A stretch of 44,893 bases of DNA from the NCBI GenBank assembly GCA_000934665.2, contig JYFJ02000819.1, positions 62,001-106,893 on the forward strand. The letters are read 5' to 3'. This document shows, piece by piece, positions 1-44,893 of this stretch. Under the pieces are notes generated by a model. It was not told the DNA's origin and made no database searches. It was given only the letters and a program-made list of their open reading frames with translations. A program made the translations under genes and the position numbers. How positions within the stretch are numbered: position 1 is the first letter of the stretch; every line of letters begins with the position of its first letter. The stretch comes from Catajapyx aquilonaris (lineage: Eukaryota).

Positions 1-1005
1 CACTCTCTGCTTGATTTCCTCCTTCCTCTCCCTGTACGCTTCTTTCAGCTCTTCTTTGCGCTCCTGGTATCGCTCCTTCAGGTTCTCCTTCCTCTCGCCA
101 TATAAATCTTTCAGGTTTTCTTTCCTCTCCTCGTACATCTCCTTCAGCTTCTCCTTTGATGGGATGGGCTTGATGTAACCCCAATCTCTCAAATATTTGA
201 TCGAGACGGTCGTTCCGCCTGAAAAAAATTCAGTTGTTAGTTATCGTATCCGCCGATGCAAATAACAGGTTACAAACCCAATGTGACGATGTATCTGGCT
301 GGAGTTGCAAGCTTGTACAGAGCAAACATCACGGCAAGATGTCCAGCTGCCGAATCTCTTATCGGATCGACAAACTTGTCCGGCAAGCCTATGTACTCCA
401 ATACTGGTACTATGTCGAATCCTCTGGAAATCAACAGGAATTAATGAATATTACATTTTACATCAATTTAGAGCACATTAAATTCCGATTGCAGCAGGAT
501 TTTGTGGCTAACTTATCTCAGGAAGTAAGAGAGTGAAAATATTTGAAGATTGCGTACGTCTTCGCCACGTAGTAGAACGTCCCAAACCAGATGACCGACG
601 TGAAACAATGCACTGGTACGAGGACATACCAGTACTGCTTATACATTTGTTTAAACCGCTGGAACAACGTCATCTTTTCTACCGGTAGGGAATCATCCTG
701 GTCTGGCTTCGGATCATTCTGACCGCCTTTGGTAACAAACTGCCGGGAATGAATGGGCGTCTGGCATGTGACCGGCAGAAGAGGCGCCATCTGACACAAC
801 TCGCATCTCATGCGGAGGTCACGTCTTGAGTATACCGGATCTGCAAGACACACGTTAATATGTTACGGTGTGCGCATGTGTATGGGGGCAACGTACATGA
901 GGAGGTCCTCCAGCGTGGTCCGGCTGCTGCGGTGGCTACGACCCATCCTTCCGGTGCTAATAGAGATGTCCTTGCAAGCCTGGCAGACAGACACAGCAGG
1001 TTCAT
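1..1005 (-). CDS. FAM210A: FAM210A-like (DUF1279) mitochondrial membrane protein, 3'-truncated by the window edge; exons 1005-897, 840-558, 423-278, 218-<1
   Basis: GT-AG introns (841-896, 424-557, 219-277) give one continuous frame. It reads MNLLCLSARLARTSLL (Arg-rich, presequence-like) ... LFQRFKQMYKQYWYVLVPVHCFTSVIWFGTFYYVAKTGFDIVPVLEYIGLP ... AGHLAVMFALYKLATPARYIVTLGGTTVSIKYLRDWGYI, then a K/E-rich coiled coil. These match the FAM210/DUF1279 signature motifs. An acceptor AG at 1009-1011 implies an upstream non-coding exon. Confidence 0.9.
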
Positions 1006-20132: not shown

Positions 20133-23100
20133 TCATGCGAGCAGGTTGTAGACGACCCTCCTGAGTGCGGTGACCACCTCGCCCCTGAGCTTGGCCGAGG
20201 TGAGCAGCAGCACCACCGGGTGTACCAGGAACTCGCAGTAGACCACCAGGTCGCAGATGAGGATGGCCACAGGGTGCAGGACCCATCCTCTGAGTCCGAC
20301 CACCAGCATGGCAGGCAGGTAGAGGAGGAAGTGGCTGATGGTGATCAGGAAGGAGGTCAAGGCGCTCTTCTCCAGTCGGCGGTAGTCCAACAGACGGACG
20401 TTGGTGATGTTGTGCACTCGGGCCTGCTTCTTCCGGAGTGAGACCATCACCAGGATGTAGGCCACGGTCAGACCCACCAGTCCGGCGCAGTACCCGGTGA
20501 AGATGACCAGGAAGAAGGCCACGGGCAGATCGGGTATGCAGAGGATGATGGCCGGCTCGAACACAGCTCCGAAGCAGTAGGTGACCAGTCCTGCACACGC
20601 GAAGGACACCAGCCAGGTCAACACCACCAGGGCCATCACCAGCTCTATTCGAAGCAAGGGGTACCTTCCGATAGGGAGGCACGCGGCCAGGACGCGGTCA
20701 ACCTGAAGAAGAAACAATCACAAAAGAAAGGTGCGGGTCAGAACATCAAAATACGGCGGTTCTATAAATACTATAGTAGCGGACTCGTTGCCAAATTTTG
20801 GCAACACTGCCATGCAGTCCTCCACTTGGACGTAGTACGATATGCCACTACCAGTTGGGGCATAGGCCTAGCATAGGCTGTCCCTCTGCGCACTATTTCC
20901 GTGCTTAGCGGGAAAGTAGTACTATACATGCACGTTGGTGATGAGTCACCGCACGGACAAAGCCTACCAGGGTGCTACTTGTACAACCAGCGCGTTGAAA
21001 TGAGTCCCACCCTCTCTGACATCTATATGTCCTCTAATAATATTGCTGAACGGGGAAAGTGAAAACTATGGTAACTACTACCTAGGCGATGAGCCAACAC
21101 AGACATATAAACAGACAGACAGAATAAGGGAATTAGTAAATAGTATCGAAAAACGCGAAATGAGCGAAGCGAGTGCTTTTCTATACGCCTGCGCCTTAGA
21201 AAAATGCGGGCGAAGCGAAGGTTTTTTTAAAAGTCTTAACCTATTAAAACACAGACAATCACGCACCGTCACTCGCCGTCACGCATCGTCACGGACCATA
21301 TACAAGCGTGCCGTGTTCCGTCACGCCAACCTACTCGCCAAAAACTAGTGCTGGCTAGTCACCAACAACAAACTTATCATGATGATGTCATAATCAGTAC
21401 GCTTGTGGACAAGGTGAGATTGAGACATTTTACTATACCAATTTTATGCCTGCAGTTGCTCACTACACCTTACTGCTCACTATTTTGTCAATTAACATCT
21501 CAGCAGCTTCTTTGCAAAGTAAGAGATAAGCTGGTAGGTTGTAAACAATTATTCACTAGTTTCCACAGCCAGCTTTTTAAACATTTTTACTGCGGGTAAT
21601 TAAATAGGGCATAAAAATCTCGGCGGGTCATAATTTCATTAGAACACCCACTTTCTTTGAGAGCAGTCATAATTCTAGTCTGAAGACTACCCAGCTCTGT
21701 TGTATAGACCCGCAACCTCCGGTAGATTTATAGCACAACCTACACACCACAAAAAAAAAGTCCGCCTTTTCTTCTCTCGTGCCCCTGAATGACGCTTTCA
21801 TTTTGGCTCAAGGGCTTGTATTTTGAGGATTTTTGCCAGCTTGAGGACAATGCAAAAAATTGGCGACTCTTTTTTTTATGTGTGGGTGTATTTCCAAAGC
21901 CCTCTTTCAACTCCTGTGGTAACGATGTCATCCAGGCGAGTGTTATCATGGGAAGAACAAGGTAATCAGCAATGATCGTTTGATGTTATTTTATTCGACC
22001 TTGGATCCGGGCCAAAGGCAAGCTTCCCCCCGTATAAATTTGGGGGGAGGCTGTCGGAACATGCTCGTGTTTCATGGTCCTCGGAGGAATAATCAAAAAC
22101 TTTTTGTGACTCTAAAAAAGAGAGAGAGAGAAGGGCCAGACTTTCACCTGTGATGCGCAAAGTTAGGCCCAAGTAGGGCGAAAATTTTAGGACCAGTCTG
22201 CAGGGGACTATGGTGAATTTATGGACCAAACTTACAGTTCTAAACTTCCGGTGACGGTGTGTGACTTTTGCGCTTTGACAATCTGCATGACTTAATGAAG
22301 TCTTAAGCAAAATTAATGGGAGGAGCATGATAACAAAAGTGAACGCAAATGTTCTGTGCATTACTTGAATATATTCGACCTACCCCACTGTAGTGCCATA
22401 GTTTGATGGAAAAAAGTACCTCAAAGTATACGAAATCCTACAGTGTACTATGGTATTCTGAAAATGCTCCGCTAAAGCATAGGAACTATACATAGAACAG
22501 TAGAAATGCGAATAATTTCTATGGCACAAATTATTCGGCACAAGTACGATCTTGAGATTCTCGGGATTGCTCGTTAAATAAAATTGCGACGAATTAAGCG
22601 AAACGTGCTGCGATAATCAGCCAACGGAGCAGAAAATATTTTTAGGTAATTGTTCGGACGATAATGGCATCATTATACCTTCTCCTCTCTAATACTCGAC
22701 TATATCCAGTGAGCCGGCAGAATTTCTTGCGATTTCTCATTTCTCTTGTTCTTATCTCTAATTTTGGGGCTATGCACGAAATTTGCGACAAAAGGAGGTG
22801 AGACGTGATGCATGTGGCGCAGTCTAGACGGCAGCAGAGCTAGTGAGGCAGAAATTATTCGATAAAATGTCCGCCTCGCTTATGGCATTCTCAAACTTCA
22901 CTTGAGTTCTCTCTACTTGGAAACTGGAGCACACAATTCTACGAAGTGGTATTGTGCCAGAAATTTTGATGAACAAGCTAATTTTTTCTGTTAGAAACGT
23001 CGCAACTGGCTAGTTGATTGCTAAAGAAAGGCAAGTTGTGGACTACATTGAAAGGTCAAGTAGATTTCTGAAGTATCAATAACTTCTATTAAATCAAAAA

Positions 23101-26100
23101 AAAATATTAAAATCCTTCGTTCTATGACCAAAGCTTCCGATTGTCCCGCCGCGACACTTCCGATTGGCCCTGTCTGCGCCTGCGCAATGTCGTAGTAATT
23201 ATTCACTTTCTAGTCTCTCCAATAGTATAAAATGACCCAAAATTTTACACTAGTTGAAAATTCGCAATAGAGATTCACGTTTTGGTTTAAATATTCTTGA
23301 GAGGCTGACCTTGAGCATGATGACGACGAGCAGGTGCTGCCCCCAAAGGGCGACAGTGACGACGCTGGTGGCAGTGCAGAACTTTGATCCAAAGTTCCAC
23401 TTTCCTGCGGTGATGACCGCCAGGGGCACTGGAAGCACGAGCGCGGCTCCGACGCAGTCGACGATGCAAAGGTTCTGTATGAGCAGGAAGTTGACGGTAC
23501 GCAGCTTCAGCTCGTTGCGTCCGATGTTGAGTATGACGCAGATGTTGATGAAGAGAGCCGCAGCCATGATGATGGACACCAGGGCTATCTGAAGAGGCCG
23601 GTTGATCAAGGGCAATGGATCGCCAGCGTCGTGGTCGCCTGGGAGCGCCTGAAGGACCACGTTGTCGCGCTCGATCGCAACGACCACGTCGCTCGCGTTC
23701 AGACCGCTTATCACCGACGGAGGCTGTTGGGAGCGGAAAAAACGGAACAGTTGACAACAATGCATCGGACATGCCAATGACTGTGAATAAACATGTTAGT
23801 ATTAACTGTAATGCCAATTACCCTGTACGTAATGTAATCCGATAATTAATTTGCATTGTGGGATTTGCTTTCCCGGACCTAACAACAGATATATTATACA
23901 GCGTATCATACACAGCAGTACCATACAAAATGGTATTGTATTTGTTTAAAAATATATATGACTTGGGCAAGTGTGACGTGGGCATTTTTTTAGCAACGTG
24001 CAAAAGTGGTCCTTTGTTACCTTCTGAGAATGGAATATTATACAGGGGCTGAGAGCCCCCGATAATTCAAAAGAACTAAAATGAATTACCTGCAATTTGC
24101 TATTCGCTCCTCATTCTCATTGTATATTCACGTCACGTCGTCTGGAAAAAAAATGAGGGGGGTTTTGGTAGGCGGGTTTCACATCCGGTAATGATTATGC
24201 GCCATTAAATTCTGTTAGATTTTTTTTTTGCGAAACCCTGCAAGTTGCTGATCTCACCTGCAGGTTATTTGTTAGCATTATTATAGACCACATATTGTTA
24301 ACATCTTGCATTTTTTTAAACAAAAATGGGCGCTTTCACAAAAGATCAGCCGGTTTGAATAGAAGCAATAATAATGCCCAATATTTCCTTGTTGCTTCTG
24401 ATTGCTAGGGTGAACAATAAACTTCTCCCGGGCGTCACTATAGCCAGTGCTTCGTCCGAAATAATGATTAATTTTGTTAGATCACCATGACATACAGTAT
24501 ATCAAGGCTTGGAATGATGGATGTGGACTGATATCGACCTGAATATTTTGCAGGAGCAATTCATTAATCCTAAGTGGATATGAAAAAATTTATTGCGTAA
24601 TACTGTCGGGGGGAGGGGGGGACCCAGGGAGAGTTTTGGGCCACATTTTGCCCCAGTTTCGCACAAAAATAGTGGTCGATTTCTTCCATCTCACAGTTTC
24701 TACGTTTTTTTCTGTCAGAATTTAGAAGGTTATACGACAGAGGAAAAAAATATATATAAACCGACAAACAGTATTGCATGTTCGTAAAACAGGTTTTATT
24801 TAGGTGTCACAAGGGGAGCTGAAAACGCTGTCGTTTCCACTAATATCGCGTCTTGAGTTTATTGCTGACTTTTATTTTAGGCAGTTTTTCGAACCAGCAG
24901 CATGTCATGTCATAGGCCACCAATGCCTTTGGTTGAGTTATACTGCGTTGGAACCCTTTTTACTACCAGCAATGTCCATGTATATTTTGATGCTTCAAAA
25001 ACCAGGTACCGCACAGTATATGTCGCGTAAAAGCTTGTCAAGTATGAATCTGACAAAAGGGGGCTATCATTCGAGTCAGTTAAGTGGTTACTGCAGTTTA
25101 ATTCAATGCTTGCATAACATTATAAGGGTAACGCGTGCAATGGAAGCAAATGAAAATGGTTTATTCAAAAGAGAGAGAAATTATTATAATGCTGTTTTCT
25201 GATTGAGTACGGAAATATTGTTGGCAATCGCAATTTGAATCATTTCCTCGTTACTTAATGAAGAGTGTACCACCATGTAATTGGCATATTTTAAAACAAA
25301 TTTGTATTAAAATTTTCCTCCCAGTGCCTACGCATTCATGTTGTTCAATATACACGAACTGTTTTGTCCATTATTCCGCTCAGACAGGCGAGTAACGAAT
25401 TCTAATGGATGTGTTTGGAATTATGAATTATTGCAGCCGCATGTTCCAATTAATCGCGACATATATTTGTATTTAAAATTCTGGGTTTGATATCTCTTAC
25501 TGAGTGTTTGCTATTCACAAATACTGGACAGTAGGCATTATAATAATTTATTGAATACATTAGTCCATGTAACACACGACGTGCGTGTTGGAGCCAAATG
25601 AGACCACTTTATGCTCAGTGTGTACTTTTTGTTTAATTTGACGTAATTTTAATGGACATGTAGTGGATCAAATTTAATTATTTGCTACTATGAACACTGA
25701 ATACCGGTTATTTAAAAACAAATTTGAAAAGTTTATTTACTTGTATGTATACACTGTAAACCGCAAAATATTAAAAGAGCATCACTGAGTCTTTCATGGA
25801 ACATCAATTTTAATGCTCTGCTAATGCTCTTGTGATGCTTTTTAGCAACAAAAAAGCATCATAGGAATATTATCAGAGCATTAGAAGAGCATTAAAAATT
25901 GATGTTCCATGAGAGACTCACCAGTGATGCTCTTTTAATGTTTTGCTGCGGTTTACAGTGTACGCTATGATTAATCAGAAATAATCAGATGTACACCCTG
26001 TAATTTCAGTTCGTACAACTGGGCATATGTGTCTGACAGTTTGTAATAACTATTCAGAGTGCAAAAATCAGATATTTCTTTAATAGTGTTGATAAAACTG

Positions 26101-31146: not shown

Positions 31147-31947
31147 TCATTTATCGGATCGATGGGATGAGAGCTTGGTATTTCGGCCGTATATTCCTCG
31201 AACCTGTTCCGAATGGGCCTAACACGTAAATGCATTCCGAGGGCCATCCCAACCATGGAAGACTCTGAAGGCAAGAGGCGGCCAAAATTCCTCATCCGCT
31301 TATCAGCACCTATCATAACAACACAAAAAAGGGATGGATTTCTTGAGATGCAGAGCACCAGACTGTTACCTTTGTTTTCTTTTCATTTACTGGGGGTACG
31401 TTTTGCTTGAGTTTCTCCTGGTCCAGGTCACCTTCTTCCCATTCCCAGCCCTCAGGAGCTTCCTTCAGAATGAAGACGGGATTGAATCGGCTGTCCTTGG
31501 CTTGAAATGAAGTATATAGGGTGTTACATGGGGGTGAATTTTAAGAAATATACGTAAAAATTTATAAGATTGTTCTAAGGACAGACCTGCATATTCGCAC
31601 AACTCCTTGTGGCAAATGAGATTCTTGACCTGATCCGAGCAGTACAAGAGGGTCACTGTGGTTTTCCCAGTATGCTCCTGACAAGCTGGCAGGGGTGACA
31701 CCGACTCCTCCGCATATCAGGACCAGTTGCTCCGCAGGGTAGAGGCAAATCTGTCCCATCAATCCCTTGATTAGCTCATTGGAAGCGGCCATCACCCATC
31801 CAGCTTTGGAATCGCGAAGAAGACGTTCCAATCCTACAACAATAATGTCAGTTCATTAATTTAGATTATTGATCAAAATGCAACCATATCAGGAGCCACT
31901 CTTGTTGTAGTACCAGTTTCATTTTTATATCCGGCACCACCGCAAGC
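31147..31947 (-). pseudogene. Truncated, internally deleted pseudogene copy of ACAD/reductase fusion gene A
   Basis: It retains the 3' part of exon 8 (31947-31914), exon 9 fused directly to mid-exon 13 (…GQICLY-PA-EQLVLICGGVGVTP…), an intact exon 14 (31500-31370) and exon 15 (31309-31147). Exon 15 has a GGA->TGA stop and a 5-nt deletion. Exon 13 has a 4-nt deletion and a further small deletion. The introns still align with those of gene A. Confidence 0.92.
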
Positions 31948-33733: not shown

Positions 33734-33941
33734 AAGAAGAACGCCAGAAGTTTCGTCTTTCAAGCAACTTGTTACACAACGAGAATGAGTATATAGGCCT
33801 ACTTTTGAAGGTCAACAAGTCATACATTAGTGTGTCACGCTTGTGACCCCTAATACAAACTCAGAAAAGACTGTCCAAATTAATCGCCAAGTTCCTTTGC
33901 ACAATCAAACATTTTTATTTACTCCTTGTTTTGTACTTTAA

Positions 33942-34068
33942 GGGCCGGTTTCACCGAGCTCAGTATATGATAAAACCAGGGTTCTTTCTCAAAATCCCTA
34001 TCTATTTGTATGGGATTTTCCTAAAGAAACCTGGTTTTATCATATACCAAGCTCGGTGAAACCGGCCC
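33942..34068. mobile_element. PIF/Harbinger-type (Tourist-like) MITE, 127 bp, TAA TSD
   Basis: The junctions read taa|GGGCCGGTTTCACCGAGCT ... AGCTCGGTGAAACCGGCCC|taa. The element is a near-complete palindrome. Confidence 0.9.
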
Positions 34069-34471
34069 TAAGTGTGTATTGGGAAGCTGTAAAAACTAAA
34101 TTAAGCTAAGAATTATGTAACGAGTCTGGTCCCTCCCTGCTATAGATATAAACAGAGGAAGGCGAAATAAAATTCAATTGATAAGGAATATGGATGTTAA
34201 CAGTCATTCCAGAAGTTTATAACAGATAATTAAACTCCCCCACCCACTCACACTATATTTAGACATAATACCTCCTCTTAGGAGATGGTTAGTAATAAAT
34301 ATTGCAAAATATTTGAAGCATATGTTTATTTGTGCGTGGAATGTGAAAATTGGGCACTACATTCTACATAATATGCTGCTCGATGTGCCTGATTACGTAT
34401 ACAGTATAAAAGTGATTAGAATGAAATCGGTGTTGAGATTTTTCCTGGATTTTTCCAAATGATCCTGATCA

Positions 34472-37400
34472 TCATTTATCGGATCGATGGGATGAGAGCT
34501 TGGTATTTCGGCCGTATATTCCTCGAACCAGTTGTGTTCCGAATGGGCCAAACACGTAAATGCATTCCGAGGGCCATCCCAACCATCGAAGACTCTGAAG
34601 GCAAGAGGCGGCCAAAATTCCTCCTCCACTTATCAGCACCTATCATAACAACACAAAGATTTGTTATTTAAAAAGAGAACGGATTTCTTATACGGTATAG
34701 AGCACCAAACCTTTGTTTTCTTTCCATTTAGTGGGGGTAGGTTTTGCTTGAGTTTTTCCTGGTCCAGGTCACCCTCTTCCCATTCCCAGCCCTCAGGAGC
34801 TTCCTTCAGGATGAAGACAGGATTGAATCGGCTGACATGGGCTTGAAATGAATTAGGGTGTTACATGGGGGTGAATTTTAGAGAAATGTACATCAAAAAT
34901 TTATAAGTATAAGGACAGACCTGCATAGTCGCACAACTCCTTGAGGCAAATGAGATTCTTGACCTGATCAGAGCAGTAGAAGAGGGTGACCTTGGTCAGG
35001 TCACGGGGGTTCCCCAGCATGCTCCTGACCAGCTGGATGGCAGGGGTGACCCCGACCCCTCCGCATATCAGAACCAGTTGCTCCAGGGTGTTCTCCAAGT
35101 ACTCGAATCCTCCGCGTGGACCTCGGAAGTCGACAGAATCACCTAAAAAAGGACAAGTCTCTAATTAACCAAGGACTTGTGCAGTGCAGTTAATTGTACG
35201 ACATGAACCTGGTTGCATTGACCTGAACGCGTTGGACACAAGCCCCGACCCTTCCAGCTTGGTGACAATCTCCAACTGTCCGTACGCGTCTGGGGCAGAT
35301 GTGGGCGAGAAGAATCTCTCCTGGTCTCTTCCGGACTCGGATCTGATCCTCATCTGCGATCGGTTTCCGATTAATGACGGGATATATTGCCCTTTGCACC
35401 TTGACCTTACCTGAACGTACTGGCCTGGCATGCATCCCAGGTGATCTGTGGAGTCTGGTAAGGCGAAAGTGAGCAGGAGAGTGTCCGGTGCACATTCGCT
35501 CTTCCTTATTAAATTGAGAGCCTTGTATTGCTCGGGGTGAAGAGCTGGCTTGTGCGACTGGCCATCGGGTGTCGTCATCACCTGACAAGGAAAAAAAATT
35601 TGCGAACATCATTATGTTTCAGGTGGTTAGTCGATAAAGATGCTGGATATCGCGATGAAATTGGTTCACAAATAGCACGTATGAAGAAGAAACATTATTT
35701 TATTTGGACTTACTTCGGAGACATAATGCGGAAGAGAGGTGTTGAAGGGATTGTCAAAATCGTTGGCGAGTTGATTTGAGGGCTGTTCCTGAGCCTTGTT
35801 CTGCTCCACCTCCTGCAGCATCTCCTTTGCCAATTTCTCCTTCTCGTCCAAGGTCATCTTTCGCAGTTCCCGATGAAGATTGGGGCGGTTCACCTTCCGG
35901 TCCCTGCAATAACAGCGCACCAAAAATATGTATAGCACATATTTCACTGAAACGGTACATGTTGTATTACGATGAGTCACTTTCGTAGTAGGCTATGTTT
36001 GAATCTTGAGTCTAATTTTGAGCGTTGACCATCCCTTTCGCATTTAAAAAGATGGTTGAATTAATTTCACGGAAATTTTTTTCGCATTTTGAAACTACTG
36101 TAACTTTTAATGTCCGGTTATTACCAAGTGTCGACCGATTCCAATCCATAGAGGCAAATCTGTCCCATCAGTCCCCTGACCAGCTCATTGGACGGACCCA
36201 TCACCCATCCGGCTTTGGCATCGCGAAGAAGACGTTCCAATCCTGCAAAAAAAAAGTCAGTTAATTCATTCAGAAGGCGATCAGAGTACAAAAATAGAAG
36301 GCGGCAGTCTAATACCCGTTTCATTTTTATATCCGGCACCACCACAAGCGTGTAGCATGGTTTCTGTTACATTGCTGCTGGTTTCGGCGGAGATGTACTT
36401 CAACAATACTGTCTGAGCCATGAATTTGGTCCTGAAGTTGAAATGCTCAAGTTGAACAATTGAGCATGCAGCCAAACTCTGTAGTCTTGGATTACCTGGG
36501 TTTGAAAGACCGGTCTTTGTATAGAGACCAATCGCAATTTTTTGTCTCCACGTCTATCTGGGCCGCGTAAGCATATAGGGTCATCCTGCTGGCCACAATC
36601 GAGCAGATGCTCTCTCCAAAGTATCCCTTTCAATTGAAAAAAATGCATTTCAATTGGCTATTAATTAGATGAAAAATTGAAACTTAATAAATCTACCTCC
36701 GGTAAACAAATCATTACAATGACAATAAGAGGATTATGTCTCTTCACAAAAGCGATGGTGTTGACAAGCTTACGATGCCCCAACGGACTATAGTGGTTGA
36801 ATTATTGAGAGTGACAGTCTATGAAGCCGAAGCATCGAGACAGATATGTGATCCTCTCACTATCAGTTACTTCCTCATGGAAAATAAACCTATACCTAAA
36901 AATGACAGGCACAACGCGTCTCAGCTTGTTTTTGTCTCCTGCAGCTGCAATAATAAACATAGTGGAGATATCCATGCTGTACGGTATAGTCCAAGGTATA
37001 GTCTATAAGCGTTATAAAACAAGAAATTGTTCAATGCATAAATTTAGGGCAAGGCAGTGCGAGGCAGCCTGCAACCGGTCATAACTGGTGCAGTAACGAC
37101 TTACTTGCACTACAGGGTAATCGCAGACCCTGAAGTTGTTTTGTCCGTGTGTCTTTGTGGTGACATGTCTCTTGGCCACGTCCATTGCGCCCAAGGCTAT
37201 TCCGTTGAAGCAAGCCGTGAAGAAGAGCATGGCCAACGGGACTAGTTGTTCCGAATTCTGGTCATCTCCAAGGCCTGTAGTCGTAAACCATTATTTACAC
37301 AATTACGTACCACCATGGTCAAACAAATAATTGCTGGTGTACATACCGACGCCTCCAATGATCCTGTTTCTTTCGAGGAGACCTTCGCAGACCAGGGGAC

Positions 37401-38687
37401 CAGACTGATTGCCCCTCATCCCAAGGGCCTCCCACTCATTGGCGTAAGTGCGGATCTCATCCTGTCAACAAGGATGGGGTTCAATGTATGTGATGTGATG
37501 ACACGTGTAGCTCGTTACCTTGAACATGAGGTAGAAGGTGGTACTGGCAAAGTCACCGTCCGAGTCAGGGTTTGAGCTGCTGACCACGTACCAGTCGGCG
37601 AACCCAGCGGAGGTGCTCCACTGGCCGTACTTCAGGAGACGAACGCGGTTCTCGTCCACCGTGGTGCACTTGGACGCCAGGGGAAACCAGAACTGACCGC
37701 CTGTCGGAAGCTTTGTTGAATTCGCGGTAATAATTCAGACAAACTTCCAGGGCTTTACTTGCCTGAGGCAGGATCGCTGAGACTTGATGTCCCGACGAGC
37801 CTCTTCTTGTCCAGATTCCTCAGCACGTCTTCGAACACGGGGTTGTCGTGATAGTAATTGAGCAGCAGGCCGCATGACATCAGGTGCATTGCTACAAATA
37901 AAATGCAATGAATGTCACATAGTTGAGGGAAATGTTGAATGGGAAAATTTTTTGTGAATTATTTTGCATGCCAATGCATTGTGGGACAGTACAATCAGGA
38001 AGGATTGAATTTTAAAAATATGTTTTGAGCTATACATGCATTTTTCACTATTAATTATGTAATATTGCCTCTAAGGTGTAAAGCTGAGCAAATATGGGGA
38101 ATGGGTTAAAATCACGCAATCCTAATTATTTTGATGAAAGGTGAAGAGGACATTAAGGAAGTAAGGAAAGCTGAAGCGGATGCTGTGTATTTATAGAACC
38201 TCTTATTAGCATTTCATTAGCATTTCATTAGTCTCGTATTACCGTATCTCATTTGGGAAAAAACCCTTATTATGTGACATTGCAGGCTATACTTACTATA
38301 GACCATGGCAGTGCTAGGGCAGCCATATCTGGCGATGGTTTCGACAGCCATGCAAACCCCCACGTGGTTCTCTCCTCTTCCTCCCAACTCTTTAGGCACC
38401 AATATTCCCAGCAAACCCAGGTCGGCCATGGCGTCCAAACTGGGTCTGGGGAATTTGCTCGTAGCATCGCACAAAGGCTGGAAGATGAGCTTGCTCTATA
38501 ACACTACACGTGTGCAGTGTATTACACTCTCTTATGATAAACAACTCACGGCATTAGGCCTGATGACGGTGCGGCAAAGCTCTTTAATATCCTCCTGCAG
38601 CTTCTTCTGGTCCTCGGACAGGAACCATCCTGGTTCTAACTCGGGTCCTAAGCCCCAAAACTCCTTCTTGGGTTTACCCGAATCCAT
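34472..38687 (-). CDS. ACAD-fold + cytochrome-b5-reductase/FNR-like fusion protein, gene A (768 aa, 15 exons)
   Basis: Exons are 38687-38550, 38477-38297, 37891-37763, 37700-37519, 37461-37347, 37274-37105, 36626-36496, 36431-36316, 36242-36125, 35903-35714, 35581-35411, 35353-35209, 35142-34921, 34841-34711 and 34639-34472. They total 2307 nt and are open throughout. ACAD motifs: GLLGILVPKELGG, ETIARYGCPST, SLSDPASG, KYGQWSTSAGFAD, LGMRGNQSG, HACGGAGY, ERLLRDAKAG. Reductase motifs: LGCMPGQY, ERFFSPTS, GLVS, FRGPRGGF, ICGGVGVTPAIQ, APEGW…G. Confidence 0.93.
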
Positions 38688-40101
38688 GTCTTAAGCCTGG
38701 GGAGTGTGCGGTTGAAGCTGCTGTAACTAGCCCGGCTCCTCGTTCAAGTGCGGCTCTTTCGAGCAACGTGCTATGCAAAGTGAATGAGCACTTATGGGAG
38801 GTCAACCAGTCATGCATGAAGTGCTTTAAGACGCATTAACAAGGATGTGCTCGGACAGGATGCGGCCGGGGTAGACGTCTTGTTATACGAACCACATGCA
38901 TCATGAGTAATGTATGAGCAGTGTAATTGACGCATGAACGTTGTAAACACTCACCTTGTCGGCATTTTTTAAAGAAAGGGTAATTAGGTCAGGGGCAATT
39001 AATCGCAGACACTGACTATGTGTGCAACAGTTTAATTCTCATATAGTTACAGCAGTGCTTGGGTCTTTAATAAAGTGCAAGGTATTATGAGCGGCACAAC
39101 CTTTTTTGCGACATTGAAAGGGCTCAGGGGCTGTGCTCTTAGAGATAGAGCCAGACAGCCATTGCAGTGATTGGTGTACTATAAAAAAATACCATGTAAG
39201 AGAAGAGCACAATTTCTCTCGTTTAAAAAGTGTGTGTAAATTCGACATTTTGACATTGTTTATATTGAGGTGGAAAGAACTGAAAACCACAAGCAAACGC
39301 TTGCTGTAAGGCAACTCAGATGTTTATTCCGAGCTGGTAAGAACTTCGTAAATCCGGTTTCGTTTATTTACTAACCATATTAAACTAGTTCTGGCCTGTA
39401 TTTTCCACTCTAAAGTCAGTGCAGAAATAAGTGCGCGAATATGCCATTAGAAAGTGTATATTGAGACTAATAATAAGTGTTGATGAATACTATTTGTTCA
39501 TAATTAAATATGGGCTGCGATATATGATTGTGATGTCTCCTTAAGCCTGTTTATGCAACCTATCAGTTAGTACTGGATCTGCTGACAATATGTTGCTTTC
39601 ATATTCAGTAGGCCTATATATGATGATAATTTGATTACATAATTATCAGAACTAAGGAATCATCATTCATATACTCTTAGACATTTCCCTTTTGGTTTTT
39701 CAATGATTTGCAAATCTACAGCTACGCGTCATGACTTGCACCTGAAGTGTCGCTCGAACAAATTGAAATTATGCAACAGACCTTCACATGCGGGTACTAA
39801 AAACAATGCTGACATAATTTTGGCATGCGGCTGGACAAGTGGGCCTAATCGAGTTTTTTTTCGAGAATCAAAAAAGCTGAACCTTGTGGCGGATGGAAGG
39901 GCGCCAAGGAATCGTTGAGACACAGGCTTGGCATGTTCTACTTTGGAGATCAAGGGCGACAGCTATTTAGACGCTTCATCATACTATAGCAACACTAGCA
40001 AAATACTGTATGACATACAACAGGTTCGTGTACAGTGCAGTGATTAATTGCTTACAAGCCACTTTGCATTGCAAATGTGTTGGTTTTGCGTGCAGTTTTT
40101 T

Positions 40102-43100
40102 TTAGTATCTGGAAGTGTGAGAGGACAGTTTGGCGTTGCTTCCATATACGCCTCGCACCAGTTGAGTTCCCAGAGGACCGAAGATGAATATGGAATCCGA
40201 TTTAAATCCAAGCTGGCGTAGACTTTGCAGGCAAGATACGGCCAATGCACTGCCTCCACATATCAGCACCTAGAAAATGCAAAAAAAAAGTTTCGTAAAA
40301 TGACATCGGTTTTGGCGTTTATCCGTAATATTTTTCACAAGAGAGCGGAAAGGAATTTCACCTTATTTTTGGTGTCGGTGGACAAGTGCATGTTTCTTCT
40401 TAACACGTCCGAATCCAAGTCACCTTCTTCGTAAGACCATTCTTCAGGTGGCTCTCGAAGGATGAACACTGGGGCAAAGCGGCAATCCTTCACTGGAATT
40501 ACAGGGTGTGCTTGTTTACAACTATTTTAACTAATTAAACTATACATGAACATGATCATACGCAAATATGAACCTTCATAGTCACACAGTTCTTGATAGG
40601 AGATTAGGTTGTCCACGTAGTCTGAGCAGTAGAAGAGTGTCACCTTGGTGATATCCTGCGGGTTATCCATGACTGTTCTGATTAGTTGGATGGCCGGAGT
40701 GACCCCGACCCCTCCGCATATCAAGATCAAATGGTCCAGAGTATTTGCTTCGTACTCGAATCCTCCACAGGGACCTCTGAATTGTGCCTTGCTACCTGTA
40801 ATCAACATCAATTAAGATTCTAATTTGGCACAATAAGATGGTGGACCAGACCAGGTTGCATATCCTTTAAGGCTTTGGACACCAGTCCCTGTGCCTCCAG
40901 TTTGGTCACTATTTCTAGCTGTCCGAAAGAATTCGGAGGGGAAGTCGGAGAGAAGAATCGCTCTTGGACCGTTCCTTCCGATGATATCCGCATCTGCTCA
41001 ATAATATACAGTTTGTACAGTCAAGGTTTCAATTTTTTAGTTTGATCATCGGTTACCTGAATGTATTGGCCAGGAAGACATCCGAGGTGATCCGTGGCAT
41101 TGGGAAGTGCGAACCTGAATTTGAACGTGTCTCGGGCGCACTCGGATTTGGATATAAGAGGCAGAGACGTGTACGAATCCGGATTCAGGGCCGGTTCATG
41201 GTCAGTTCCATCCCCAGTTGCAAATATCTGCGAAAATATTTAGTCGCTCAGGAAAATGGCCTGAACATGAACTAATGTGCAAATTCCTGAAAAATCATTA
41301 ATATTTATGATTACCTCTTCCCAGTGCTTGGGAGGCTGTGTGTTGAACGGGTTGTCAAAATCATCCTTCGAAATTGGTATTTTGTCGCCTCCTTTTCGGT
41401 CATCCACTTCTTGCAGGATGTTTCTAGCCACAGCCTCCTTCTCGGATAATGTCATCTTGCTCAACTCTCTGTACAGGCTCGGGATATGAACTTGGTTACC
41501 CCTGCATTTATAATAATTATATTTATGTTATATGCGAGTTTTCCACGTCTTCATTACCATCTGTCCACTCCGTCAATCCCGTACACACACATTTGGCCCA
41601 TGAGTAACTTGATCATTTCGGATGATGGCCACATCAGCCATCCGGCTTTGGAATCGCGAAGAAATCTTTCCAATCCTTTCATATAAATATGATAAATTAT
41701 TATGCACAATTTTTAAAAAACTAAAAGTTAGCTACCAAGGTCTCGCCTGAATCCGGCACCTCCGCAAGCACGAAGCATTTTTTCTGTCACTTTACTCGAA
41801 TTTTTTGCAGCAATAAATTTGGCGCAGGATGCTGACGCAACGTATCTGGAACTTTTAACATACTCCTGGTTAATTATTTTGTATCTTAATCCTGCTGGAC
41901 GAGTGTTCATTACCGTGGTTTGTAATTCGGGTTTTTGTACAGAGACCAGTCGCATCCATTTGTTGCTTGGTTCAACATCTGGCAGTAAGAATAGACTGTT
42001 AATCTACTTGCCATTGTGCTGGATATGCATTCTCCAAAGTATTCCTGGCGGGGAATAAATGAAGGGTAATAACTCACTTGTACTTTCAATTTATGCGATT
42101 GTGAGTATACCTGAACTAACGGGTAGTCGCAAACGCGGAATCCGTTCTGTCCATGAGTTCTGCTGGTGACATGTCTCTTTGTCACGTCCATTGCCGCCAT
42201 TGCGATTCCATTACAGCAAGCTGAGATCATTAGCATTGTTATTGACATGTTGACATTCTCCATACCACTTGTCGTGCCTGTCAAAATATCATTACAATAA
42301 TTAGGTTTTTAAGATAGCCAGAGCAGCAGCAGCAAACTTACTCAGCCTGCCAATAATCCTCTCTTTGTTCAAGACTCCTTCACACACTACTGGACCTGAC
42401 TGATTTCCTCTCAAACCAAGAGCTTCCCATTCGTTGGCGTATGTGCGTACCTCGTCCTAAAATAAAATGCATCAATATGAAACTGTACACTTTACACTAA
42501 TTAAAATGTGAACCTTCAGGAGCAGGTACACGGAGGTACTGGACATGTCACCATCAGCGTCTGGACTTGCGCTTGTGATCACGTACCAGTCGGCGTACCC
42601 GGCTGATGTGCACCACTGCCCGTACTTCAGGAGCCGGATATTTTGCTCGTCCATAGTTTGACATTTAGATGAGAGTGAAAACCAGAACTGCGATCCTATT
42701 TTAAACACAATCAGGTAATTAAATGAGACGGATTTGAAGCCGAACTGACTGCTTACCGGTAGCTGCATCGTTCAGGCTTAATGTTCCGATCGATTTGGTT
42801 TTGTTCAGATTCTTGAGTAAGTCTTGGATGAAGGGATTGTTGTGGTGAGCCTTCAGTAGCGAGTTGCATGCAGCCAAGTGCATAGCTAAAATTCATATCA
42901 GGCAATCAGATATCTGGTTGAAATATTGTGTACCTGTACTTACTGTAAACCATGGCGGTGCTGGGGCATCCGTACCGAGCGATTGTTTCGACTGCCATTG
43001 CCGCTGCCACAATGTCTTGGCCCATCCCTCCAAGTTCTTTTGGAACCAGAAGACTCAGCAGACCCATGTCTGCCATGGCGTCCAGACTGGCTCTTGGAAA

Positions 43101-43319
43101 CTGGCTGGTGCGATCGTACTCGTCCTGAGAAACACAGAAATATATTAAGAGCCGTGCATCACCTTCTAAGTATTGAATTCTTACCGCATTTGGTCTGATG
43201 TGGTTGTGGCAAAGCTCGATGATGTTCCTCTGAAGCGTCTTTTGCTCCGAGGTCAGCAGCCAACCCGGGTCGAACTCGGGACCCAAACCCCAGTGATGAT
43301 GTGCCCAGCCGTTCTCCAT
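40102..43319 (-). CDS. ACAD-fold + cytochrome-b5-reductase/FNR-like fusion protein, gene B (764 aa, 15 exons)
   Basis: Exons are 43319-43185, 43124-42944, 42885-42757, 42695-42514, 42456-42342, 42277-42111, 42044-41914, 41851-41736, 41675-41558, 41501-41315, 41227-41057, 40993-40852, 40795-40574, 40492-40362 and 40269-40102. They total 2295 nt and are open. All 14 intron positions and phases match gene A, and 11 of 15 exon lengths are identical. Confidence 0.93.
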
Positions 43320-43614: not shown

Positions 43615-43639
43615 GGGGGGGGGNNNNNNGGGGGGGGGG
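43615..43639. other. Poly-G tract containing 6 undetermined bases (43624-43629)
   Basis: nnnnnn lies inside a G run, marking a sequencing or assembly ambiguity. Confidence 0.95.
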
Positions 43640-44330: not shown

Positions 44331-44893
44331 TCACGGTCCTGATTGATGAGACGATAGTTTGGCACTGTTCCCAAACACAGCTCGAACAAGCTGAGACCCG
44401 AAAGGTCCGTAGATGTATATAACTTCCGAAGGCCATCCGAGCCATCGAAGGCTTTGCAGACAGGAAGCTGCAAGTGTCGTCCCTCCGCTTATTACCACCT
44501 GAAAAATCCACAGTGAAAAATAAATTATTACATAGAATGAGCAATTGTGTAAAATATTTCTTAACAAGTTCCGTTTAGTCACGGACTACACTTTCATTGT
44601 CTGGTAGTATATCCTGATTGCTTGACAATATTATTATTGTTATACTGTATGCAATGCTACATATACATACACTGAATCACTGCATTTCCCCAAAATGGTA
44701 AATCCTATCTTGGGAAAATGCCGTGATTGGTATGCGTATGATGCCTATTTCAAGCAGGATGGCGAACCTTCAACTTCCTGTTCGTGTGACGTTTCGATCA
44801 CGATCTTTCTGCAGGGGAAATACTGTGGTGAAGTGTGCAGGAATATTTTACCTTCACCCTTGAAGATATTCCTGGAAGATATTGCTTCATTTT
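44331..44893 (-). CDS. 3' end of a third ACAD/reductase fusion paralog (gene C); exons >44893-44852 and 44498-44331
   Basis: The last exon is 168 nt, as in A and B, and encodes VVISGGTTLAASCLQSLRWLGWPSEVIYIYGPFGSQLVRAVFGNSAKLSSHQSGP*. The upstream exon end KMKQYLPGISSRVK|gtaaaa matches exon 14 of A. The ACAD part is outside the window, so the fusion is assumed. Confidence 0.85.

Follow-up and report, generated by a model that had tools for sequence, protein, structure and literature searches.

Organization of the locus

The window analysed here, a stretch of 44,893 nucleotides from the genome of Catajapyx aquilonaris (positions 62,001 to 106,893 of contig JYFJ02000819.1, assembly GCA_000934665.2), contains two complete genes arranged in tandem on its minus strand and designated below as copy A and copy B (Table 1). 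Each of them almost certainly encodes a single-chain fusion of a module with the acyl-CoA dehydrogenase (ACAD) fold and a flavin reductase module of the cytochrome b5 reductase (cb5R) type. Together they occupy the interval 34472–43319, from the stop of copy A at its lower end to the ATG of copy B at its upper end. From 34.4 to 43.4 kb, the stop-to-stop open reading frames (ORFs) of the minus strand can be arranged in two collinear series, and among these exon ORFs Pfam recognizes Acyl-CoA_dh_N (E-value of 4.6e-12, at 38217–38495), FAD_binding_6 (9.3e-13) and NAD_binding_1 (1e-8).

The proteins deduced from the two gene models share 60% identity, and the exon lengths of the two copies differ by multiples of three only, so that all 14 intron phases are common to both. 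This bears out the first-pass annotation, a reading of the letters alone, which had described two intact 15-exon genes with conserved splice phases, each encoding one polypeptide. GT-AG borders are found in 27 of the 28 introns (in copy B, in all 14), the sole exception being intron 3 of copy A (37701–37762, minus strand), which reads G/GCAAGT...CAG. To retain the frame this intron would have to be spliced as GC-AG; the same intron of copy B is of the GT-AG type.

Table 1. Features of the tandem array, in window coordinates
Feature	Coordinates	Strand	Description
Copy A	34472-38687	minus	15 exons, CDS 2307 nt, 768 aa; ATG at 38687, stop at 34472-34474; script-built model
Copy A, exons 1-5	38550-38687, 38297-38477, 37763-37891, 37519-37700, 37347-37461	minus	
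Copy A, exons 6-10	37105-37274, 36496-36626, 36316-36431, 36125-36242, 35714-35903	minus	
Copy A, exons 11-15	35411-35581, 35209-35353, 34921-35142, 34711-34841, 34472-34639	minus	Stop included
Copy A, exon lengths 1-15			138, 181, 129, 182, 115, 170, 131, 116, 118, 190, 171, 145, 222, 131, 168
Copy A, ACAD-fold module (N, middle and C domains)	36125-38687 (exons 1-9)	minus	Assigned by Pfam Acyl-CoA_dh_N and family alignment; contains VMGPSNE where ACADs have catalytic YEGT
Copy A, exon 10	35714-35903	minus	End of the ancestral ACAD-like C-terminal helix (RELRKMTLDEKEKLAKEMLQEV), fusion point, DFDNPFNT motif
Copy A, cb5R-type module	34472-35581 (exons 11-15)	minus	FAD-binding barrel (RFFSPTS, GLVSNA), NAD(P)H-binding domain (GGVGVTP; SGGG replacing CGG), conserved ~25-aa C-terminal tail
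Copy A, 3' untranslated region (at least 140 nt)	34332-34471	minus	Contig record 1 starts at 34332
Copy B	40102-43319	minus	15 exons, 764 aa; ATG at 43319, stop ends at 40102; script-built model
Copy B, exons 1-5	43185-43319, 42944-43124, 42757-42885, 42514-42695, 42342-42456	minus	
Copy B, exons 6-10	42111-42277, 41914-42044, 41736-41851, 41558-41675, 41315-41501	minus	
Copy B, exons 11-15	41057-41227, 40852-40993, 40574-40795, 40362-40492, 40102-40269	minus	
Copy B, exon lengths 1-15			135, 181, 129, 182, 115, 167, 131, 116, 118, 187, 171, 142, 222, 131, 168
Copy C, last coding exon of a third tandem copy	44340-44501	minus	tblastn: 72% identity to copy A residues 713-766; remainder past window end
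Decayed partial copy, closest to copy A	31147-31947	minus	Pieces of exons 8, 9, 13, 14 and 15; introns kept, in-frame stops, frameshift

Transcript support

To assess splicing, contigs of one public run (X1), whose type is unrecorded and which contains one third of the sampled words, were aligned to the window. The run record being silent on its type, we infer that X1 is derived from cDNA, as its contigs lack introns at GT-AG sites: they skip 13 segments that end in CT..AC on the plus strand, i.e. GT..AG on the minus strand. With an intron counted as confirmed when a contig has at least 31 letters on each side of the joint, spliced contigs confirm 8 of the 14 introns of copy A and 4 of the 14 of copy B; a fifth joint of copy B (40492/40574), with 30 letters on one side, was left out of the count.

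The most informative contig (record 1), which is 1207 letters long and free of mismatches, joins all exons of copy A from 9 to 15 and its 3' untranslated region, running to 34332. All of its joints (36124/35902, 35712/35579, 35411/35353, 35207/35140, 34921/34841 and 34709/34637) are of the GT-AG type, and the contig spans the C-terminal part of the ACAD module into the reductase. The junctions over exons 9–11, which the first-pass annotation had singled out for an RNA check, are thus confirmed for copy A; for copy B no contig of X1 bridges exons 9–11. Run X1 has no cover over exons 1–4 of copy A, most ACAD exons of copy B and its exons 9–11, and has no bearing on expression or splicing there.

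Two further features of X1 coverage were noted around these genes. An 838-letter contig (depth 15.7) covers the spacer between copies A and B (39022–39861) and abuts the contig carrying the 3' end of copy B. Downstream of copy A, the stretch 33784–34247 is covered far more deeply (~50) and has numerous loose ends, pointing to a repeat or to a further transcript.

A fusion shared across a family

An exhaustive HMMER scan, for which the N-terminal piece of copy B served as query, yielded 804 matches (a word-index search with a single exon ORF, 35165–35608, gave no match). It retrieved a 770-aa lobster protein (P0003, named "uncharacterized") and an 882-aa ostracod protein, both of which carry, by Pfam, Acyl-CoA_dh_N, Acyl-CoA_dh_1/2, FAD_binding_6 and NAD_binding_1. 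A search with lobster P0003 then detected 927 proteins at E ≤ 1e-10. Among the best 120 of these 927, from which the composition of the family was read, the top 67 are eukaryotic, and 64 of the 67 combine ACAD domains with those of the reductase (FAD_binding_6/NAD_binding_1), so that the architecture, far from being a rarity of this genome, occurs in at least 64 proteins of other invertebrates. The remaining 53 are bacterial proteins of 462–480 aa with ACAD domains only, 53–56% identical to the ACAD part of the lobster protein.

Among the matches listed, the hosts of fused proteins include decapods, a stomatopod, amphipods, an isopod, barnacles, krill and an ostracod, as well as the annelid Owenia, the brachiopod Lingula, the chiton Liolophura and four scleractinian corals, often with several copies per species; a search with the reductase half added no phyla. 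All of these proteins bear automatic names ("uncharacterized", "acyl-CoA dehydrogenase fadE25", "ACAD9-like", "NADH-cytochrome b5 reductase 1"). Aligned with 60 of the listed proteins, copy A is covered over residues 7–767, mostly at 44–50% identity (38–50% overall, a few partial proteins covering less), and this nearly end-to-end alignment validates its gene model. Full-text literature searches yielded nothing on this fusion or on any characterized enzyme of this architecture, in agreement with the first-pass annotation. The family is therefore widespread among invertebrates and already deposited in databases, and it is uncharacterized.

The unfused bacterial proteins also carry the C-terminal helix of the ACAD module (NER.L..E.KKM...K..LA..LL; MTLDEKEKLAKEML...) and end inside the stretch encoded by exon 10. 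The segment first described as "helical/linker" is, accordingly, no new linker but this shared helix, and the alignments place the fusion point after it, within exon 10 and right before DFDNPFNT. A junction internal to an exon, a contig that bridges it, fused proteins in other animals and a confident structural model of the lobster orthologue (see below) together indicate one polypeptide rather than two adjacent genes, as had been proposed from the splice phases.

In a tree of 63 sequences chosen by hand from ~300 proteins, copies A and B are sisters (support 100) on a long stem, and the bacterial relatives form one clade (support 99). We also considered rooting the tree to obtain a direction of transfer, but the root is unreliable, the outgroup branches measuring 4–10 changes per site, and no donor is claimed. 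One protein with ACAD domains only (P0010, 450 aa, an unnamed ENA entry), first labelled bacterial, clusters with the fused protein of the ostracod (support 98) and may represent a truncated eukaryotic gene model or contamination.

Structure and conserved features of the two modules

An AlphaFold2 model was computed for lobster P0003 on an alignment of 77 sequences; results on Pfam domains, folds and PDB relatives refer to such orthologues or to single-exon ORFs. The lobster model (mean pLDDT of 92.8, pTM of 0.92) indicates a defined two-module arrangement, and Foldseek matches it to cb5R 2EIX (TMt 0.91) and ACAD 4M9A (0.90), with DszC scoring 0.80. The protein, of about 765 residues, probably binds two flavins per chain.

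The closest solved relative of the reductase part, in a search with an orthologue, is the NADH-cytochrome b5 reductase of Physarum (2EIX, 1.4e-44), followed by the human and pig cb5R, nitrate reductase and CYB5R4. Both window copies carry RFFSPTS, GLVSNA or GLVSKA, and GGVGVTP (consensus RxFSPxS, GxxS and GGxGxTP). The CGP(PP)-type motif, which reads CGGP in the family, has become CGGS in copy B and SGGG in copy A; its cysteine is invariant in the other 55 fused proteins, across which 27 positions of the reductase part are invariant. A conserved tail of ~25 residues (FGxxQ..xVYGR...LSxH) extends past the cb5R core. Judged by the three motifs kept in both copies and by the family-invariant positions that each retains (56 of 59), the reductase module looks functional, and it appears to be a tightly FAD-binding enzyme of the cb5R type, unlike the free-flavin reductases of two-component systems. 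The first-pass annotation had proposed that the reductase partner of a two-component monooxygenase is fused here; that picture survives as an analogy only. The C-terminal 270 residues resemble NADH-cytochrome b5 reductase and its natural fusions (nitrate reductase, CYB5R4/Ncb5or) in fold and in their FAD/NADH motifs, and the protein differs from them in having no haem or b5 acceptor domain, the acceptor being, presumably, a second flavoprotein domain; the extra tail and the SGG for CGP of copy A are further differences.

The ACAD module has the three-domain fold (alpha, beta and alpha) of its namesakes: Pfam recognizes the N, M and C domains in the relatives, and the window proteins align end to end with the lobster protein. 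Its closest solved relatives are true ACADs, e.g. short-chain ACAD (2DVL, 2e-28 with a bacterial relative as query; TMt 0.87–0.90 for ACADs), and the flavin motifs GGxGY and ERxxRD are retained; the module therefore probably binds flavin. The amine N-oxygenases of the ACAD fold are detectable next (DnmZ 4e-14, KijD3 1.5e-12, a nitrososynthase 3e-10). Among NCBIfam models the best match is Rv1679/FadE16 (177–213 bits against a cut-off of 600), followed by acryloyl-CoA reductase (107 bits) and 3-sulfinopropanoyl-CoA desulfinase (97 bits; cut-offs 600–640); DszC, HsaA, SfnB and HpaH-C2 give 34–71 bits against cut-offs of 430–850. Every named model is thus far under its cut-off, and nothing was found in the literature on the function of Rv1679/FadE16. 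The class B flavin-containing monooxygenase (FMO) fold (PF00743; NF058570) was absent in Pfam and NCBIfam scans of orthologues and in a Pfam scan of the window exon ORFs.

These comparisons do not favour the kinship with group D monooxygenases drawn in the first-pass annotation, since both in sequence and in fold the module is nearer to true dehydrogenases than to DszC or DnmZ. On the other hand, the module shares with group D (KijD3, DnmZ, ORF36, DszC, HsaA, SfnB/MsuC) an ACAD fold that is devoid of the dehydrogenase base; some group D members are amine N-oxygenases, and all depend on flavin reduced by NAD(P)H. In the known group D enzymes, a small reductase on a separate chain supplies the reduced flavin in free form, whereas the proteins described here have a fused cb5R-type module with its own bound FAD. 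An oxygenase and a reductase in one chain occur naturally in the fused two-component monooxygenase StyA2B, with a group E fold and a different type of reductase.

The YEGT motif, which provides the catalytic glutamate of ACADs, aligns with MGPTNE in a bacterial relative. The MCAD-type glutamate site is occupied by glycine in copy A (MGPSNE), tryptophan in copy B (MWPSSE), alanine in lobster (MAPSNE) and glycine in bacteria; the IVD-type position is phenylalanine, as read in one aligned bacterial relative only. Further departures from ACADs are insertions (NxDWS...PR...W.WQ), the extra C-terminal helix, the fused reductase and the absence of a presequence: the conserved core begins at residue 8–10, as in the bacterial proteins, with no N-terminal extension, which leaves no room for a presequence and suggests that the enzyme is probably cytosolic. 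It is therefore likely that the protein is not an acyl-CoA dehydrogenase, as the first-pass annotation had also held. An ordinary dehydrogenase dependent on electron-transfer flavoprotein (ETF), with the reductase as an inert appendage, would account for the automatic names "acyl-CoA dehydrogenase", "fadE25" and "ACAD9-like". With the MCAD-type glutamate missing in every aligned member (the IVD-type position having been checked in the bacterial relative alone), the reductase motifs and 27 positions held invariant across 55 fused proteins, and no N-terminal extension usable as a mitochondrial presequence, we consider it highly improbable.

Copies A and B each keep 56 of the 59 family-invariant columns, and 100 (A) or 98 (B) of the 124 near-invariant positions. 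Together with the family motifs (FWGLG..DP.W, SDPxTGxHFW, CWNGI, DYPxIQDYFG, MGP(S/T)NE and the C-terminal helix), these counts place the window copies, by sequence, in the same ACAD-like family as the bacterial proteins, whose genomic association with trimethylamine N-oxide (TMAO) demethylase (Tdm) is described in the next section.

Gene neighbourhood of the bacterial relatives

A scan of one genome per species gave 326 relatives, and 80 loci from cyanobacteria, Alphaproteobacteria and Acidobacteriota were kept and their flanking ORFs clustered. The commonest flanking ORF contains DUF1989, GCV_T and GCV_T_C domains in all four representatives tested, and PMC12560246 gives the combination of DUF1989 with GCV_T as the architecture of Tdm. 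The neighbour in Labrys passes the NCBI model for TMAO demethylase (1177 bits against a cut-off of 1100). A Tdm-like ORF, from a cluster that includes GcvT-only ORFs, lies no more than 3.5 kb downstream of the ACAD-like gene in 48 of the 64 loci that have at least 2.5 kb of downstream sequence; 44 of the 48 are on the same strand and 11 within 150 nt, some overlapping by 4 nt. The association is seen in all three of the bacterial groups sampled, and four of five cyanobacterial genomes without an adjacent Tdm have one elsewhere.

Other recurrent neighbours are glutamine synthetase (GS)-like ligases, GATase/GXGXG/Glu_synthase trios (resembling N-methylglutamate synthase), Amt transporters, copper amine oxidase, PhyH and SBP. 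The order in Labrys is TMAO permease, followed by ACAD-like, tdm, GcvT-like (dmmD-like), DmmA and DmmB-like genes, with a DmmC-like gene just beyond. We found no publication on an ACAD-like gene beside tdm, and this methylated-amine context is not foreseen in the first-pass annotation.

The presence of Tmm and Dmm was examined in 42 carrier genomes, many of them metagenome bins, so that absences are soft. Canonical Tmm is found above its cut-off in 4 of the 42 and a DmmC-like gene in 12, most carriers having Tdm and neither Tmm nor Dmm. The notion that the ACAD-like gene simply replaces Tmm was considered and is weakened by the coexistence of the two, the genes adjoining in two of the four genomes.

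Two side observations concern Tdm and its surroundings. The cyanobacterial Tdm-like proteins (L001:7459–9351, L013:9353–11221) have ~620–660 residues, lack the first ~150 model positions and score 813–839 bits; the part missing relative to the Methylocella-type model is a DUF1989-like N-domain that is called ubiquitous in PMC12560246. Directly after tdm, 33 loci have a conserved ORF of 163–173 aa (e.g. L001:9376–9882 and L013:11218–11709, both on the plus strand) belonging to no Pfam or NCBIfam family.

The tandem array and the remainder of the window

Further copies were sought by tblastn of pieces of copy A against the window, which revealed the last coding exon of a third copy (copy C) and a decayed partial copy (Table 1). 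In the latter, exons 10–12 are deleted and exon 9 is joined straight to the middle of exon 13; a processed pseudogene was considered and ruled out by the retained introns, which make it an unprocessed one. Given a second full copy, the exon of copy C and the decayed fragment, the locus is a tandem array that is expanding and decaying at once. Six N (43624–43629) mark an assembly gap between copies B and C.

Elsewhere in the window, two ORFs on the minus strand (20133–20717 and 23250–23795) have weak matches to the rhodopsin family of seven-transmembrane receptors (7tm_1, E-values of 5.6e-4 and 1.1e-6, both under the Pfam cut-off) and are probably exons of G protein-coupled receptor genes. Another minus-strand ORF (518–862) contains a FAM210A/B-like domain (1.4e-8). 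These receptor-like ORFs and the FAM210 domain fit an animal genome.

Proposed function and alternatives

The reading we rank first, if tentatively and at somewhat less than an even chance, is that of a self-sufficient oxygenase, driven by NAD(P)H, whose substrate would be a small methylated amine; the conversion of trimethylamine (TMA) to TMAO is one example. In the cb5R module, the bound FAD would accept a hydride from NAD(P)H and hand electrons on to the flavin of the ACAD module, which, once reduced, would react with O2 and N-oxygenate the amine, the likely reactions being TMA to TMAO and/or dimethylamine (DMA) to its hydroxylamine. In bacteria the product would feed TMAO demethylase; in animals it may accumulate, e.g. 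as an osmolyte, or the reaction may serve amine detoxification. The parts of this proposal carry different weights. That electrons pass from NAD(P)H to the flavin of the ACAD module is likely. A methylated-amine substrate has about an even chance of being correct for the family as a whole and a distinctly lower one for copies A and B, and the specific conversion of TMA to TMAO is speculative. A possible functional analogue would be Tmm/FMO3 (class B), which converts TMA to TMAO with NADPH and O2 and has an unrelated fold; tmm adjoins tdm in known clusters, and the same neighbourhood is seen at two of our loci (L032 and L036).

Several observations weigh against this proposal. The link to amines is a matter of gene neighbourhood only, in bacteria whose proteins are ~55% identical, and is not evidence on the animal proteins. 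By sequence and fold, the ACAD module is nearer to true dehydrogenases than to the known oxygenases of that fold. Tmm lies within 1.4 kb of the ACAD-like gene in L032 and L036, Labrys and two Acetobacteraceae have Dmm genes as well, and a flavin reductase or ETF gene was sought in the bacterial clusters examined and none was seen. Freshwater and terrestrial crustaceans (crayfish, Hyalella, Armadillidium) have members of the family too, a poor fit with a purely marine osmolyte role. In addition, H151 (lobster numbering), invariant in all 77 aligned members, is glutamine in both window copies (GGHFW changed to GGQFW or GSQFW), the near-invariant W270 and W354 are lost in both, and, on their long branch, these copies may have shifted substrate.

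The bacterial clusters are compatible with two readings, an N-oxygenase that makes the substrate of Tdm and an oxidation of DMA that consumes its product. We place oxygenation first, at the modest strength stated above, since an NADH-type reductase, fused to the enzyme in animals, is more readily understood if the reaction consumes NAD(P)H. Under the second reading, which we regard as unlikely though deserving consideration, an amine dehydrogenase or oxidase would use the ACAD-fold flavin to oxidize a C-N bond of DMA or a related amine to the iminium, hydrolysed to methylamine and formaldehyde, and would fill the step from DMA to methylamine, the animal cb5R carrying electrons away to NAD(P)+ or another acceptor. 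Sequence proximity to dehydrogenases and coexistence with Tmm are in its favour, as are the 30 of 42 carriers that have no DmmC-like gene though Tdm would produce DMA, the joint presence of Tmm, ACAD-like and Tdm without Dmm at L032 and L036, and an Acidobacteriota cluster made up of N-methylglutamate-synthase-like, GS-like, ACAD-like and Tdm genes with neither Tmm nor Dmm. On the other hand, an oxidizing enzyme does not readily account for the fused NADH-type reductase, since electron flow to NAD+ would run uphill, Labrys and the Acetobacteraceae already possess Dmm genes, and we know of no precedent for amine oxidation by an ACAD fold.

The substrate could also be something other than an amine. 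A self-sufficient ACAD-fold oxygenase, as proposed in the first-pass annotation, for a sulfur compound, an aromatic or a xenobiotic, considered especially for the two divergent window copies, agrees with their loss of H151, W270 and W354, with a simultaneously expanding and decaying array (a pattern typical of genes of detoxification or specialized metabolism) and with the weak homologies to SfnB, HsaA, DszC and MsuC. Those homologies are, however, weaker than the ones to ACADs and far under the cut-offs, the copies keep most of the invariant and near-invariant positions of the family, and the sole available context evidence points to methylated amines; we therefore find this version improbable. 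Slightly less probable still is an ETF-independent, NAD(P)H-dependent reductase, in which cb5R would replace ETF and the target reduced by the ACAD flavin would be a thioester of the enoyl or acryloyl type or some other small molecule that is unsaturated or oxidized. The closeness of the fold to acyl-CoA dehydrogenases, the preserved GGxGY and ERxxRD and the acryloyl-CoA reductase and desulfinase models next in rank after Rv1679/FadE16 speak for it, but those matches are far under their cut-offs, the catalytic glutamate, needed for the reverse reaction too, is absent, and the bacterial loci examined contain no genes for CoA ligase, CoA transferase or ETF.

Implications for methylated-amine metabolism

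TMAO is a major osmolyte and pressure counteractant in marine animals, and our literature search did not find any gene by which invertebrates synthesize it. A TMA monooxygenase that is soluble and depends on NADPH was reportedly described biochemically in a copepod around 1980. A conserved, multi-copy enzyme with two flavins, tied by homology to bacterial TMAO and methylamine clusters, offers a testable candidate. In its most specific form, which we put forward as a conjecture that is more doubtful than probable, the family would be the soluble TMA monooxygenase (TMAO synthase) of invertebrates, i.e. a bacterial-type ACAD-fold amine N-oxygenase fused to a eukaryotic cytochrome b5 reductase, and the unfused bacterial enzyme would form with Tdm an "N-oxygenate, then demethylate" cycle in which neither Tmm nor Dmm is needed to convert TMA and DMA to methylamine.

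Irrespective of the substrate, an ACAD-fold flavin supplied with electrons by a cb5R module would amount to a so far undescribed mode of electron transfer, and these proteins are misnamed by automatic labels such as "acyl-CoA dehydrogenase", "ACAD9-like" and "cytochrome b5 reductase 1". The bacterial family could fill the missing TMA- or DMA-oxidizing step in many cyanobacteria and Acidobacteriota that have Tdm without Tmm or Dmm. Should the conjecture prove true, it would add a third, unrecognized route to the methylated-amine cycle and a new reaction class to the ACAD fold.

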